A stretch of 39,472 nucleotides of DNA, from IMG/VR virus record IMGVR_UViG_2695420732_000023; one strand, given 5' to 3'. This stretch comes from a virus. Taxonomy: Duplodnaviria > Heunggongvirae > Uroviricota > Caudoviricetes. Every line of letters starts with the position of its first letter. Within the stretch, counting starts at the first letter, position 1. Shown piece by piece: positions 11,356 to 16,455 of the stretch. The notes beneath the pieces were generated by a model that worked only from the letters and a program-made list of their open reading frames with translations, did no database searches and had not been told where the DNA came from. The position numbers and the translations under genes were made by a program.

Positions 11356-12153
11356 ATGAATAATCTGATGGTCATTGATGGTATTGAAGTTCGTCGTGAT
11401 GCTTATGGGCGTTACAGCCTGAACGATCTGCACAGGGCTGCCGGTTCTCTGGATAAGCATAAGCCTGCATTCTGGCTCCGCAATGAGCAAACTGAACGTT
11501 TAATAAGCGAGTTGCAGATTTGCAACTCGGTCAATATAGAGCCAGTTAACGTTATTCGTGGCGGAAATAACCAGGGGACGTATGTCTGCAAAGAACTGGT
11601 GTATGCCTATGCAATGTGGATCAGCCCGTCATTCCATCTGAAGGTGATCCGTACTTTCGACATGGTAACCAGCGCACCTGAAAAATTATCCGGACAGGCT
11701 GCTGACAAGATGCAGGCTGGCGTGATTCTGCTGGACTTTATGCGCCGGGAGTTAAATCTGTCTAACTCTTCAGTGCTTGGAGCCTGTCAGAAACTTCAGG
11801 AGGCTGTTGGCTTACCGAATCTGGCACCGCGCTATGCCATTGATGCTCCTGCTGATGCACACGATGGCTCAAGTCGCCCGACACTGTCACTGAGTGCACT
11901 GCTGAAACAGTATGGTATCCGCCTGACGGCTAATCAGGCATATCACCAGATGGTGAAGCTGGGGATCGTCGAGCAGCGCGAACGATACAGCCGTACCGCG
12001 ATTAACAACATCAAAAAATTCTGGTCGCTGACAGCGAAAGGCTGCATGTTCGGCAAGAACATCACCAGTCCCGCAAATCCGCGCGAGACGCAGCCGCACT
12101 TTTTCGAATCCCGATTCCCTGAGCTGTTAAAGCTGCTCGATACCGTTCATTGA
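11356..12153 (+). CDS. KilA-N domain protein (antirepressor-like)
   Basis: N-terminus VIDGIEVRRDAYGRYSLNDLHRAAG...KPAFWLRNEQT typical of KilA-N DNA-binding domain; AGGAG RBS. Confidence 0.6.
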   Translation: MNNLMVIDGIEVRRDAYGRYSLNDLHRAAGSLDKHKPAFWLRNEQTERLISELQICNSVNIEPVNVIRGGNNQGTYVCKELVYAYAMWISPSFHLKVIRTFDMVTSAPEKLSGQAADKMQAGVILLDFMRRELNLSNSSVLGACQKLQEAVGLPNLAPRYAIDAPADAHDGSSRPTLSLSALLKQYGIRLTANQAYHQMVKLGIVEQRERYSRTAINNIKKFWSLTAKGCMFGKNITSPANPRETQPHFFESRFPELLKLLDTVH

Positions 12154-12154
12154 G

Positions 12155-13150
12155 GTGACCGTGAGAGCACTACTGACCCCTGAAATTGCCCCGCGTATGG
12201 GGATCGTATTGTTCAGACCAGGTTCAGAGCTGATGCCCCTGTTTATGCAGGGGCGTGTCCTGCTGGAGCCTGAGCCGGAACGTTATTCATCTTTTGCCAG
12301 TGGTGCCGTTCCGGCGGCATCACAACCGCTGGCGGATGATCCTGCCGTTCGGGCCGTGTTCCGCAATGAGGCAGTGATCCGTCGTGCTGGTGGAGTGGAA
12401 TGTCTTGAAAGCTGGTTACTTCGTGAAAAAGGCTGCCAATGGCCTCATTCCGACTGGCACAGCGAGAACATGACCACAATGCGACACGCGCCGGGCGCAA
12501 TCCGTCTGTGCTGGCACTGCGATAACCAGCTGCGCGATCAGTTCACGGAACGGCTGGAATCAATGGCAACGGATAACTGTGCCCGCTGGGTGTTATCTGT
12601 TGTGCGCCGTGATCTCGGTTTTGATGATAGTCACGTTGTAACAATGCCGGAACTGTGCTGGTGGCTGGTTCGTAATGACCTGGCTGATGCCTTACCGGAA
12701 AGTGCAGCCCGTAAGGCACTGAGATTACCTAAGCCTGTTGTGCCGTCTGTCACCCGGGAGAGTGACCTTGTTCCTTCGGTTCCTGCCACCAGCATTATCC
12801 AGGATAAAGCGAAAAAGGTGCTGGCGCTGAAAGTGGATCCAGAGTCGCCGGAGTCTTTTATGTTACGCCCAAAATGTCGCCGCTGGGTTAATGAAAAGTA
12901 CACGCGCTGGGTTAAGACACAGCCGTGTGCATGTTGTGGAAAGCCTGCTGATGATCCCCACCACCTGATAGGCCACGGTCAGGGTGGAATGGGTACAAAA
13001 GCGCATGACCTCTTTGTGTTGCCTTTGTGCAGAAAGCATCACGACGAGCTGCATGCGGATACCGTGGCATTTGAAGAGAAGTATGGCTCCCAGCTGGAGC
13101 TGATATTTCGTTTTATCGATCGTGCGCTGGAAATAGGCGTGCTGGCCTGA
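12155..13150 (+). CDS. DUF968-like protein with C-terminal Cys/His (HNH-like) motif
   Basis: 331-aa ORF; C-terminal CACCGKPADDPHHLIGHG...CRKHHDELH; position upstream of Q as for Qin ydfU-type genes; start codon uncertain (GTG at 12155). Confidence 0.5.
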   Translation: MTVRALLTPEIAPRMGIVLFRPGSELMPLFMQGRVLLEPEPERYSSFASGAVPAASQPLADDPAVRAVFRNEAVIRRAGGVECLESWLLREKGCQWPHSDWHSENMTTMRHAPGAIRLCWHCDNQLRDQFTERLESMATDNCARWVLSVVRRDLGFDDSHVVTMPELCWWLVRNDLADALPESAARKALRLPKPVVPSVTRESDLVPSVPATSIIQDKAKKVLALKVDPESPESFMLRPKCRRWVNEKYTRWVKTQPCACCGKPADDPHHLIGHGQGGMGTKAHDLFVLPLCRKHHDELHADTVAFEEKYGSQLELIFRFIDRALEIGVLA

Positions 13151-13167
13151 TTTTGTGGAGAAATTTG

Positions 13168-13533
13168 ATGCGTGATATTCAGATCATCCTTGAACGTTGG
13201 GGGGCATGGGCAGCTAGTGATAGCTCAGGAGTGGACTATTCGCCTATAGCTGCTGGGTTTAAGGGACTTCTTCCCTATACCAGTAAGGCACGCCAAGCTT
13301 GTTCAGATAATGATGCGCTAATTATTGAAAGTTGCTTGGAGCAACTAAAAAAAAGAAAACCTTATGAGCATTCTCTACTGGTTGCGCATTATTTGTACGG
13401 GTTTTCAAAGCGGAAGATTGCCAAAGTACAAGGAAAGGATGAGAAATTAATCCGTATAGAAATATTGTTAGCAGAGGGATTCATTGATGGTTGCCTTTCT
13501 ACTCTCGATATTCATTTAGATATGGAGTTATAA
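13168..13533 (+). CDS. late-gene antiterminator Q (QuuD-like small Q family)
   Basis: MRDIQIILERWGAWAA...IAAGFKGLL...LDIHLDMEL resembles DLP12 QuuD by recall; GGAG RBS 7 nt upstream of ATG at 13168; position before lysis genes. Confidence 0.7.
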   Translation: MRDIQIILERWGAWAASDSSGVDYSPIAAGFKGLLPYTSKARQACSDNDALIIESCLEQLKKRKPYEHSLLVAHYLYGFSKRKIAKVQGKDEKLIRIEILLAEGFIDGCLSTLDIHLDMEL

Positions 13534-13542
13534 TAAAAATAA

Positions 13543-13567
13543 CCCCGTAAACTTTATGTTTACGGGG
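13543..13567. terminator. bidirectional rho-independent terminator between convergent Q and TIR-like gene
   Basis: perfect 10-bp stem CCCCGTAAAC/GTTTACGGGG with 5-nt loop, A-run upstream and T-run downstream. Confidence 0.6.
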
Positions 13568-13572
13568 GAAGG

Positions 13573-14388
13573 TTATTTCTTTTTTTTATTACTTTCAGAT
13601 AATCGTCGGTTTAATGTGTATTTTATTTGGTTCCTAATCATTTTTTCAGGAATGTCATATTTGTCTAAGAATGATATTATTTCATCCTCGTCAAGCAATC
13701 CATTCTTTATAATTTCATCTATCTGTTTTTGTAGATACCAAACATCCTTCTGTTCTACAGGAGTTAAATTCATATGGCTATTTATGGAGTTGATAGTAGC
13801 ATCACGTTCAAGAACTCTAATCCTTTGATTTAATGAACGAGTGTTTTGTAATATTTCAGATAAAAGATCTTGTTCAGTACGTGGTTTTACTTCTTCAGTT
13901 GGAGGGTATTGATCTAAAGCTCGTTTAAAATTTTTTTCAAATTGCTCCCAGTATGTATTAAAAACTTGCTTTAGAATACGGTCATCTAAAGATTTATCGA
14001 CAAGACAATTGTTTATTGTCCTTACTAATTCCCAAACACTCTCTTTATTTGGCGTTGTGTGATTGAATTGAGCAAGTGGATCTTTTAAATCTTCTGGTTT
14101 TAAGTCAATCAAGAATGTACAAACTTTATTTGTTGAAAGTCCTTTTGCTAGTGCTCCTGTTTCAAACAAAATCCATGGTTTATTTTTATTTTCTTGTGTC
14201 AAACATACAATGCCGACAGATACATCTTTTAATTTATCATTAATTTCAGAGAACCATATAGCGCCACGATCAATATCTCTGGTTGAAATCCATGGCTGCG
14301 AAGCTTGGATAACACACTTCAGCCAGTCGCTAATAAGTTCTGCAACAGCTTGACTTCTTTGCCCAGACCAACTTATGAACACTTTCAT
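13573..14388 (-). CDS. TIR-like domain protein (N-terminal TIR-like fold, C-terminal domain of unknown function); candidate antiphage defence moron
   Basis: start MKVFISWSGQRSQAVAELISDWL (FISWSG motif typical of bacterial TIR-like domains), later WILFETGAL with candidate catalytic Glu; visibly AT-rich versus flanks; opposite strand to all neighbouring late genes; GGAG RBS. Confidence 0.65.
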   Translation of the reverse strand: MKVFISWSGQRSQAVAELISDWLKCVIQASQPWISTRDIDRGAIWFSEINDKLKDVSVGIVCLTQENKNKPWILFETGALAKGLSTNKVCTFLIDLKPEDLKDPLAQFNHTTPNKESVWELVRTINNCLVDKSLDDRILKQVFNTYWEQFEKNFKRALDQYPPTEEVKPRTEQDLLSEILQNTRSLNQRIRVLERDATINSINSHMNLTPVEQKDVWYLQKQIDEIIKNGLLDEDEIISFLDKYDIPEKMIRNQIKYTLNRRLSESNKKKK

Positions 14389-14512
14389 TATGTACTCCAT
14401 GTAATCACTCAAAAGGGACTGAAATTTACATTAAAAATTAAATAAAATCACTCACGCGGTCCGCAGAAACCATTGTAATCTGTTATGAGTGGTTACTTCG
14501 CCACACAACTTA

Positions 14513-14538
14513 AACCCGCCGTCGAGCGGGTTTTGTCG
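14513..14538 (+). terminator. tR'-like intrinsic terminator upstream of holin (candidate Q-antiterminated terminator)
   Basis: AACCCGC-cgtcga-GCGGGTT followed by TTTTG; lies between Q-proximal region and lysis cassette. Confidence 0.45.
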
Positions 14539-14685
14539 TTTCTGGGCCTAGGGATTAATTGCTTCTGCCCTATCCCGCAGTTATCCATTGGCTCGGCTTC
14601 TTTTACGTTTCCGCTTCTGATTTGCGGTTCGTGGTACACCCTCAATTTGCACCTCCTTTATCGGCGAGGTGAGAGATAACTACAA

Positions 14686-15012
14686 ATGCCTCATAACCCA
14701 AATACCTGGCTGGAGTTGTTCCAGAGCTGGTGGCGTGGAGACACACCACTGGGCGCAGTAATTATGTCGATCGTTATGGCTGGCTTGCGCATTGCCTATT
14801 TTGGCGGTGGTGGTGGCTGGAAGCGAAAAACGCTCGAGATTTTTCTCTGTGGCGCTCTGACACTGACTTTTGCATCCGCTCTTGAGTATGTCGGATGGCC
14901 TAAATCTCTTTCTGTTGCCATTGGTGGCGGCGTTGGGCTGATCGGGGTCGATGCTATTCGTGGTGCGGCAATGAGAGTAATCGGTAACAAGTTTGGTAGC
15001 TCGAAGGAGTAA
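14686..15012 (+). CDS. putative holin
   Basis: 108-aa ORF immediately upstream of endolysin; hydrophobic segments (VIMSIVMAGLRIAYFGGGGG, LCGALTLTFASALEYVGW, VAIGGGVGLIGV) and charged C-terminus. Confidence 0.6.
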   Translation: MPHNPNTWLELFQSWWRGDTPLGAVIMSIVMAGLRIAYFGGGGGWKRKTLEIFLCGALTLTFASALEYVGWPKSLSVAIGGGVGLIGVDAIRGAAMRVIGNKFGSSKE

Positions 15013-15015
15013 TTT

Positions 15016-15492
15016 ATGCAGGCACTAAATTCCCAGCGTAAAGCTTTCCTCGATATGGTGGCATGGTCAGAAGGAACGGATAACGGACGGCAAAAAACCA
15101 GAAATCATGGTTATGACGTCATTGTAGGCGGAGAGCTATTTACTGATTACTCCGATCATCCTCGCAAACTTGTCACACTAAACCCAAAACTAAAATCAAC
15201 AGCCGCCGGACGTTATCAGCTTCTTTCACGCTGGTGGGATGCTTATCGTAAGCAGCTTGCTCTGAAAGACTTCTCTCCGAAAAGCCAGGACGCTGTGGCA
15301 TTGCAGCAGATTAAGGAGCGTGGCGCTTTACCGATGATTGATCGCGGTGATATTCGTCAGGCAATTGACCGTTGCAGCAATATCTGGGCTTCACTGCCGG
15401 GCGCTGGTTATGGTCAGTTCGAGCATAAGGCTGACAGCCTGATTGCAAAATTCAAAGAAGCAGGCGGAACGGTCAGAGAGATTGAGGTATGA
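15016..15492 (+). CDS. R: endolysin, lambda R-type lytic transglycosylase
   Basis: 158-aa; [33 protein letters not shown]... matches lambda R nearly throughout by recall; AAGGAG RBS. Confidence 0.9.
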
Positions 15493-15950
15493 GCAGAGTA
15501 ACCGCGATTATCTCCGCTCTGGTTATCTGCATCATCGTCTGCTTGTCATGGGCTGTTAATCATTACCGCGATAACGCCATTACCTACAAAGCCCAGCGCG
15601 ACAAAAATGCCAGAGAACTGAAGCTGGCGAACTCGACAATTACTGACATGCAGGTGCGCCAGCGTGATGTTGCTGCGCTCGATGCAAAATACACGAAGGA
15701 GTTAGCTGATGCGAAAGCTGAAAATGATGCTCTGCGTGATGATGTTGCCGCTGGTCGTCGTCGGTTGCACATCAAAGCAGTCTGTCAGTCAGTGCGTGAA
15801 GCCACCACCGCCTCCGGCATGGATAATGCAGCCTCCCCCCGACTGGCAGACACCGCTGAACGGGATTATTTCACCCTCAGAGAGAGGCTGATCACTATGC
15901 AAAAACAACTGGAAGGAACCCAGAAGTATATTAATGAGCAGTGCAGATAG
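15489..15950 (+). CDS. Rz: i-spanin Rz
   Basis: 153-aa; N-terminal TM ([19 protein letters not shown]) and coiled-coil region; matches lambda Rz by recall; overlaps R stop. Confidence 0.88.
15709..15891 (+). CDS. Rz1: o-spanin Rz1 (lipoprotein, embedded in Rz in +1 frame)
   Basis: 60-aa; lipobox LVVVGC then proline-rich [15 protein letters not shown]; AAGGAG RBS inside Rz. Confidence 0.85.
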
Positions 15951-15981: not shown

Positions 15982-16275
15982 TTATTGTGAGCAATACACA
16001 CGTGCTTCCAGCGGAGTATAAATGCCTAAAGTAATAAAACCGAGCAATCCATTTACGAATGTTTGCTGGGTTTCTGTTTTAACCACATTTTCTGCGCCGC
16101 CACAAATTTTGGCTGCATCAACAGTTTTCTCCTGTCCAATTCCCGAAACGAAGAAATGATGGGTGATGGTTTCCTTTGGTGTTACTGCTGTCGGTTTGTT
16201 TCCAACAGTAAACGTCTGTTGAGCACATCCTGTAATAAGCATTGCCAGAGCGGCAGAAAACAACATTTTTTTCAT
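15982..16275 (-). CDS. bor: Bor outer-membrane lipoprotein (serum resistance)
   Basis: 97-aa from MKKMLFSAALAMLITGCAQQ (lipobox); matches lambda Bor by recall; track ORF trimmed to ATG at 16275 with AGGA RBS. Confidence 0.88.
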   Translation of the reverse strand: MKKMLFSAALAMLITGCAQQTFTVGNKPTAVTPKETITHHFFVSGIGQEKTVDAAKICGGAENVVKTETQQTFVNGLLGFITLGIYTPLEARVYCSQ

Positions 16276-16455
16276 CTTATTATCCTGCATTGTTAAAAAC
16301 GGCAGAATCCTATGTGACAACAATTAAACGATAGTTAAATGGATTGATGAAAATTAAAACTATATAGGTGTACGGTCAGACTATTGGAGGTAGTCAGGAT
16401 TTGAATGTCAGTCTGTTGTCGGCATTCTGGCAATGCAATTTGGATAAAGCGGGGA

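Follow-up and report, generated by a model that had tools for sequence, protein, structure and literature searches.

In the canonical drawing of a lambdoid late region the gene of the antiterminator Q adjoins the PR' unit (Yin et al. 2019; 10.1101/651190). In phage lambda, sigma-70 rebinds to a -10-like hexamer and the polymerase pauses at +16/17 (PMC5001585). For phage 21 the mapped elements were taken from a curated GenBank record; in the coordinates of that record they comprise a -35 box TTGACA, the Q-binding element (QBE) ATTGAGCA/AATGAGCA, a -10 box, the start at 1542, the sigma-dependent pause element (SDPE) TAAGCTG at 1543-1549 and a terminator ending at 1591. To load, Q proteins of the Q21 family need a nascent RNA that is still short, its 5' end being threaded through the ring formed by Q (10.1101/651190). 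A layout in which a reverse-oriented gene separates Q from the lysis genes is found in the DLP12 prophage of E. coli K-12 (the classical qsr' segment), where the order is quuD - reverse nmpC - essD/rrrD/rzpD, and also in phage 434B. The DLP12 lysis operon was reported to be under Q control (PMC7918800), and phage 434B, an isolate whose Q, late promoter and lysis segment are those of DLP12, forms plaques (PMC9119081). Because DLP12 has the same layout as the locus described here, the split arrangement was already known and works.

The window (the whole stretch of DNA that was analysed, 39,472 nucleotides) is a lambdoid prophage, and the tested stretch is 100% identical to E. coli strain 268.2. 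The following features surround the locus.

11356-12153: KilA-N gene, preceding the DUF968 gene and Q
12155-13150, plus strand: DUF968/HNH gene, preceding Q
13168-13533, plus strand: Q antiterminator gene, 121 aa (PF06530, Pfam E 8.2e-49)
13543-13567, minus strand: strong hairpin directly after the Q stop codon
13573-14388, minus strand: TIR-domain cargo gene, 271 aa from the ATG at 14388 (Pfam TIR_2, E 3.8e-7)
14539-14685, plus strand: lysis-operon leader, common to the Shigella phages SfII and SfIV (88-89% identity)
14686-15012, plus strand: holin of the lambda S family (Pfam Phage_holin_3_1, E 1e-24)
15016-15492, plus strand: endolysin-sized ORF (ORF list; RefSeq/phage annotations of homologues)
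15489-15950, plus strand: Rz-like ORF (ORF list; RefSeq/phage annotations of homologues)

A non-coding stretch of 297 bp separates the TIR gene from the holin gene. The GC content of the TIR segment (13534-14439) is about 30%, against about 50% in both flanks. Past the lysis cassette lie a Bor lipoprotein gene (15982-16323, minus strand, Pfam E 1e-30) and an HNH endonuclease gene (16702-17151, plus strand), as in lambda and SfIV. A 105-aa ORF (6024-6341, minus strand) occupies the position of the lambda gene N, left of the repressor gene (6598-7290); a Pfam search with this ORF gave no match. The region 13000-15200 was also scanned against Rfam with permissive E-values, which gave chance-level matches near the Q/TIR hairpin and none on the cassette described below. 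A stem-loop that spans the ribosome-binding site of the holin gene (14650-14672, sdi-like) folded no better than shuffled sequence (z = -0.55).

Within the non-coding stretch lies a conserved cassette of about 100 bp (14440-14538), with a hairpin at its end. It begins 906 bp past the Q stop codon, and the antisense TIR gene lies in between, so that the displacement from Q by about 0.9 kb through an inserted gene, which the earlier note had described, was confirmed. The elements of the cassette are listed below.

14440-14456, plus strand: left edge of the cassette, with an A-tract (UP-element-like) and a weak -35 candidate; homology to the relatives starts here
14456-14464, no strand: palindrome GCGGTCCGC, probable QBE, between -35 and -10 at the position of the phage 21 QBE
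14471-76 and 14474-79, plus strand: candidate -10 hexamers CATTGT (phage 21 register) and TGTAAT, respectively; implied start ~14483-14487
14481-14501, plus strand: putative sigma-dependent pause element TG-T-TATGAG (TAAGAG in relatives), then TGGTTACTTCGC
14512-14538, plus strand: tR'-like intrinsic terminator, stem 14512-19/14526-33, loop CGTCGA, then UGUCGUUUCU

The weak -35 candidate can be either ATCACT (14447-52) or CTCACG (14451-56). The palindrome at 14456-64 is the sole exact copy in the window. The pause element TGTTATGAGT (14481-90) is -10-like, and its hexamer, TATGAG or TAAGAG, does not have the usual T at the last position. The pause-region sequence is unique in the window (0 copies expected) and nearly invariant across the 67 cassette variants listed.

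When the cassette was aligned with the late region of phage 21 (Guo et al. 1991; Yin et al. 2019), anchored on the TAAG-type hexamer, the order and spacing of the elements agreed within 1 nt. The phage 21 SDPE TAAGCTG is at the same place as TGTTATGAGT, and the phage 21 terminator ends 50 nt past the start, as would a leader of about 50 nt in the window. Late genes follow on the same strand in both, the lysis genes coming directly after the cassette here and after two tRNA genes in phage 21. The two loci differ in that the phage 21 cassette lies 7 nt past the Q stop codon, against 906 bp in the window, and in that phage 21 has a direct-repeat QBE and a consensus -35 TTGACA, whereas the window has a 9-bp palindrome and a weak -35. 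The window Q and Q21 are of the same PF06530 family, although distant (E 1e-4 against the PDB chains). Since the QBE of Q21 is a direct repeat and not a palindrome, the binding mode would differ from that of the only solved family member.

The comparison could be extended to lambda, whose positions +1 to +21 (AACGATGGGTTAATTCGCTCG) are identical at 13 of 21 sites, in an ungapped alignment, to the window pause region, with TTCGC at the same distance from the hexamer; TGTTATGAGT lines up with the AACGAT..TTCGC of lambda. By the lambda register, the pause would be at C14499/G14500. The logic of the lambda PR'-qut-6S RNA-tR' unit (constitutive promoter, Q site between -35 and -10, early pause element, TTCG pause, terminator) is shared by the predicted cassette; lambda differs in having a Q of an unrelated family, a leader of 194 nt, PR' 78 nt past Q and no cargo. 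Judged by these sequence comparisons, 14440-14538 is very likely a self-contained Q-utilisation cassette of the Q21/QuuD type. A small hairpin, GUGGUUACUUCGCCAC (14489-14504), lies within the invariant core and overlaps the predicted pause site; in DLP12 a single C-to-U difference in it retains pairing as G-U. A 64-aa ORF (14485-14679, plus strand) was considered as a gene and rejected: it reads through the terminator, and the relatives do not have its ATG. As this ATG arises only from the TAAGAG-to-TATGAG change of the window, the ORF is almost certainly no gene.

The sigma-70 hexamers upstream of the pause element are weak, with 3/6 + 3/6 or 3/6 + 5/6 matches to consensus. The -10 candidates match sigma-70 poorly themselves, and their register was carried over from the annotated PR' of phage 21. 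CTGAAA-18-TAAAAT (14419-14448), with a start at ~14455, scored at least equally in the consensus scan, and this start also falls within the interval 14413-14512 in which one alternative of the earlier note had placed the late promoter. Its geometry would be like that of phage 82: the -35 CTGAAA (14419-24) would be in cargo-side DNA and the -10 TAAAAT at 14443-48, the palindrome would be transcribed (+2 to +10), the polymerase would pause once about 45 nt of RNA had been made, and termination would yield an RNA of about 80 nt. This is the top plus-strand sigma-70 match within 14389-14520 (9/12), and the phage 82 Q system is known to use a pause at +25 (PMC5001585). Consensus scoring of the window and of 56 variants did not discriminate between the two start-site registers, the mean scores being 6.9 of 12 for the 14455 register and 6.6 of 12 for that of phage 21. 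The phage-82-like geometry is opposed by its -35, which is outside the conserved cassette in DNA that changes with every cargo, and by the window Q, which matches PF06530 only and belongs to the Q21 family, not to the Q82 family (presumably PF06323); moreover, the discriminator is TGG, against GCC in phage 82. Q21 threads an 11-nt RNA 5' end through a closed torus, and a 45-nt RNA would fit poorly with this; the pause element of phage 21, too, is at +2. Because Q21-type loading needs a very short RNA, the evidence favours a start shortly before the pause element, and the phage-82-like geometry is considered unlikely.

The hairpin at 14512-14533 reads AAACCCGC-CGTCGA-GCGGGTTT. Its stem is 8 bp long with a GC core of 5 bp, and the U-rich GUCGUUUCU follows. 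The folding energy of the leader 14483-14545 was -19.4 kcal/mol (z = -2.1). The intrinsic terminator (hairpin plus U-run, 14512-38) sits between the predicted pause site and the late genes, and the holin ATG (14686) is 152 nt downstream of the hairpin. A terminator about 150 bp upstream of the holin, beyond the TIR gene as seen from Q, had been noticed before; both its reality and its placement were upheld, the hairpin being conserved and the TIR_2 gene (13573-14388, minus strand) intervening. The details needed correction: the hairpin stood, but the T-run consists of 4 T's (14531-14534) and not 6, the next bases being GTCG (GTCGTTTCT after the T's), so that the end at 14538 overshoots. Terminator-like patterns were not above chance in 5 kb (8 observed, 5.0 +/- 2.6 expected); because the pattern alone is no commoner than in shuffled sequence, the site rests on conservation. 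Among 41 variants the stem hardly varies, most of the changes being in the loop. In a Klebsiella phage the head of the cassette is the same, but it is followed by a non-homologous hairpin plus T6, about 8 nt further downstream.

BLAST against phage genomes matched 14427-14760 to the Shigella phages SfII and SfIV and 14443-14535 to many other lambdoid phages, with flanks differing on both sides. The 21-nt core GAGTGGTTACTTCGCCACACA occurs once in the window (0 expected), and a scan of viral contigs with this core yielded at least 120 loci, with 67 distinct block variants among the matches listed. All 67 listed variants contain TGTTAAGAGTGGTTACTTCGCCACACA and then the hairpin. Upstream of TGTTAAGAGTGGTTACTTCGCCACACA there are, in order, a variable stretch of 10-12 nt, an A/T run, the short palindrome, (C/T)A(C/T)TAAC-like bases and the A-tract. 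Homology stops upstream of the A-tract and downstream of the T-run, and the upstream sequence differs among cargo classes. As homology starts at the A-tract and stops at the T-run, the cassette behaves as a portable unit. It is present in 903 of 5426 complete E. coli genomes, i.e. about one in six. A scan of contigs with one genome per species gave 5 matches (Shigella, Citrobacter, and two MAG contigs that are probably mis-binned), a result with little bearing on host range. Exact copies of the phage core were seen on short MAG contigs of Chitinophagaceae and Erysipelotrichaceae; mis-binning or contamination is the likely explanation.

A cognate PF06530 Q is encoded upstream of the cassette on the same strand of the same phage. 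Q21 and QuuD also belong to PF06530. The window Q is 45% identical to K-12 QuuD and 67% to the Q of PhiR49_2, and the Q21 structures 6P18/6JNX match it at E 1e-4. Every listed contig that extended far enough upstream had a PF06530 Q gene on the same strand, 29-3782 nt before the cassette. These Q proteins fall into four classes, which differ most in the C-terminal helix-turn-helix region (ISKRKIAK..EKLIRIE in the window Q, specificity group A), and each class goes with its own palindrome.

Q class A (..EKLIRIE..; includes the window): palindrome CGGTCCGC, 44 loci
Q class B (..CSDGTIRK..): palindrome GCGTACGC, 37 loci
Q class C (..SDCWVGR..; includes K-12 QuuD): palindrome TTTACnnnCGTAAA, 16 loci
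Q class D: palindrome TGTTATAACA, 12 loci

No exception to this pairing was found among the 109 loci listed, whatever the cargo between Q and cassette. Classes A and B are represented by at least 15 distinct haplotypes each, and two more divergent phages of class B, one a Stx1a phage and the other a Klebsiella phage, obey the rule. The A and B palindrome types are each combined with three different junction types 60 bp downstream. Linkage to the downstream neighbour is therefore broken while linkage to Q is kept over up to 3.8 kb, as predicted by selection on a protein and its DNA site; part of the pairing could nevertheless reflect shared descent rather than selection. Because the class pairing holds whatever separates Q and cassette, the palindrome GCGGTCCGC is the likely Q-binding element.

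This pairing bears on another reading of the conserved block, in which it is just a terminator plus a recombination junction, the late genes being transcribed by read-through from the early PR or from a promoter for a host sigma factor (RpoE-type), with Q acting elsewhere or idle. Apart from the weakness of the cassette's sigma-70 hexamers, the argument for it comes from DLP12, where the published promoter essDp, located by means of the primer Pdlp12Fw (labelled -121) of PMC7918800, is about 350 nt upstream of the DLP12 cassette, beside the nmpC start codon (3843-3875 for essDp and 4185-4277 for the cassette in the NC_000913.3 extract). The reporter fragments used in the literature contain both essDp and the cassette. 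The supplementary Term-seq tables of PMC7815308 had no essD/nmpC entries for DLP12 transcript ends, and prophage late promoters are not mentioned in the NET-seq paper PMC7876045. The essDp DNA is missing from the other members of the cassette family. In work of 2015 attributed to Rueggeberg, essDp is said to have been described as RpoE-dependent. The window lacks the DLP12 upstream region, with only 52 nt between the cassette and the TIR start codon. Furthermore, a terminator or junction would explain neither the invariant -10-like element with its lambda-like pause sequence nor the perfect pairing of Q class and palindrome. We regard this reading as very improbable.

The TIR gene is antisense to Q and to the late genes and has a GGAG 6 nt upstream of its ATG at 14388. 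Its protein matches the PADLOC model TIR-TM PDLC03016 (E 1.2e-57). This match covers only profile positions 1-246 of 293 and the C-terminus is not hydrophobic; the protein may be a variant without the membrane segment. It contains a W-x-x-E motif (IWFSEI), which is typical of NADase TIR domains. A candidate TIR promoter emerged from the consensus scan:

14423-14451, minus strand: GTGATT-17-TAAATT, 7/12 matches, predicted

This candidate would be back-to-back with the late-promoter cassette and overlaps its upstream edge. At the other end of the gene, the post-Q hairpin (13543-13567) had a folding energy of -21.2 kcal/mol (z = -4.6). An adjacent U-run is present on the minus strand only, the plus-strand T-run being about 12 nt past the stem, and the terminator scan detected the hairpin on the minus strand only. 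For this reason the bidirectional function that had been assumed is doubtful, and the hairpin looks like one that ends TIR transcription: it is a good terminator for the minus strand only. It is probably the TIR gene terminator, and it may not stop rightward transcription from Q. A comparable hairpin is at the same spot in about 25 of the 32 cargo classes listed.

The alternative formulated in the earlier note, with PR' beside Q and late transcription reading through the antisense TIR gene, was not supported: only 39 bp, with just a hairpin in them, separate Q from the TIR stop codon. In such a layout the promoter would lie at or inside the 3' end of Q, e.g. TCGATA-18-TATAAT (13505-13534), a promoter-like match of 10/12, and transcripts would have to read through 13543-67, the antisense TIR gene and 14512-38; late transcription would silence TIR by collision or antisense RNA. 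The textbook layout, in which Q adjoins PR', agrees with such a position (10.1101/651190). A start at ~13541 would nevertheless be at the foot of the hairpin and leave no space for a pause element, and neither a second copy of the core nor a second exact copy of the palindrome exists in the window, near Q or elsewhere. In addition, the sequence that follows Q is unrelated in relatives carrying other cargo, and the element specific for the Q class is in the downstream cassette in 109 of 109 loci listed. A promoter at Q, together with the silencing of TIR that it implies, is therefore judged hardly credible.

The other alternative of that note, a late promoter within 14413-14512 and a TIR gene inserted between Q and PR', was supported by the abutting cassette of PhiR49_2, by the co-variation of Q and palindrome and by the phage 21 geometry. 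The explanation that accounts best for the locus, and that in our estimation is quite probably correct, is a cassette with a start near 14484 at which Q acts through the palindrome, the TIR gene being insulated cargo. We infer the binding, the pausing, the start site and the Q-dependent read-through from sequence, and the following scheme is meant accordingly. Transcription would start near 14484 from a weak promoter with an upstream A-tract. The polymerase would pause about 16 nt downstream at TTCG, with sigma-70 on the -10-like element TGTTATGAGT. Without Q only a short leader would be made, the terminated RNA being about 50 nt long, and the holin, endolysin and other late genes would stay silent. 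After induction Q would come from the early rightward operon 0.9 kb upstream, diffuse to the palindrome GCGGTCCGC, load onto the paused polymerase and carry it through the terminator into the lysis genes. An insertion between the Q gene and the cassette is tolerable because Q acts in trans via a DNA site. Because the TIR gene is upstream of PR' and faces away from it, late transcription would never cross it; an inverse coupling of TIR expression to late transcription, suggested previously, is thus not supported, and the gene would be an insulated moron.

The premise that Q genes normally abut PR' fails for this Q subfamily, in which separation by reverse-strand cargo is the rule. Among the matches listed, most relatives have gaps like the 906-bp gap of the window, 527-3782 nt long, and the cassette touches Q in the PhiR49_2 type only; adjacency of Q and PR' is consequently not essential in the PF06530 subfamily. 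In PhiR49_2 the Q stop codon is within the A-tract, 40 nt before the hexamer, and the palindrome is that of the window. As its Q is 67% identical to that of the window and of the same class, PhiR49_2 can serve as an "empty site" reference.

Among at least 120 contigs, the gap cargo formed 32 unrelated clusters with 43 protein families, and all genes are on the reverse strand in 30 of the 32 cargo classes listed. Conserved flanks with many unrelated cargo sets at one position, by which a hotspot is recognised, were found here. Five of 10 representative cargo proteins matched PADLOC models:

window TIR protein: TIR-TM, E 1e-57
SfII_50-like protein: PDC-M53A
KAP NTPase: PDC-S20/PifA-like
two ATPases: HEC-04/AriA/GajA-like

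The other 5 were without a PADLOC match, and other cargo includes the porin nmpC and lipoprotein-like sequences. By these profile matches, several cargo classes appear to belong to known or candidate defence families. A slot at this place would be tolerated for two reasons, the action of Q in trans and the position of the cargo upstream of PR', out of reach of late transcription. Two connected proposals, for which we would put the chances at slightly less than even, can be made. In lambdoid prophages with QuuD-type (PF06530) antiterminators, the gap may be a dedicated cargo slot of fixed orientation for dozens of interchangeable and mostly defence-like sets, each with a terminator of its own abutting Q. 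The Q proteins of this subfamily may, moreover, recognise short palindromes in at least four classes, and their binding would then be symmetric, in contrast to that of Q21 with its direct repeat. In the searchable literature no paper describing a hotspot between Q and PR' or palindromic Q sites was found, which is not proof of novelty.

For the window, these results most likely locate the origin of late transcription and make the TIR gene an insulated moron uncoupled from it. Knowledge of the Q-specific element makes it easier to predict the Q allele by which a given late or toxin operon is driven. The gap between Q and cassette is a practical search site for new defence genes of prophages, about half of the tested cargo proteins having matched no known defence family. 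The four Q/palindrome pairs are suited to a specificity swap; in the PF06530 family only Q21 has been studied structurally. A reverse-oriented cargo slot with class-specific palindromic Q sites may merit a study of its own.

Of the systems compared, DLP12 shows the same split layout, and the element of the window therefore belongs to a known class. The core of the DLP12 cassette is identical at 20 of 21 positions and lies about 170 nt before the holin; the differences are the IS5-interrupted porin cargo, a class C Q with the palindrome TTTACGTACGTAAA, a gap of 2.9 kb and a holin of another family. The hotspots of P2-like phages and P4-like satellites (Rousset et al. 2022, PMC9122126) likewise have conserved flanks and interchangeable, mostly low-GC cargo that partly matches defence families. 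Unlike in those hotspots, which are in another phage type and at another position, the flanks here consist of the gene of a regulator and the DNA site on which that regulator acts, and the cargo is almost always antisense. In some Stx1a phages the same cassette, with a B-type palindrome, precedes stx1AB, and three reverse genes are between Q and the cassette. The Stx1a-converting phage LC567819 (1-4270) contains a class B Q, three reverse-strand genes, the cassette with GCGTACGC, stx1A and stx1B. From this order, the cassette in phages of the LC567819 type would be the late promoter that precedes the genes of Shiga toxin 1. The stx cargo is downstream of PR' and co-transcribed with the late genes, whereas cargo of the TIR type is upstream and insulated.
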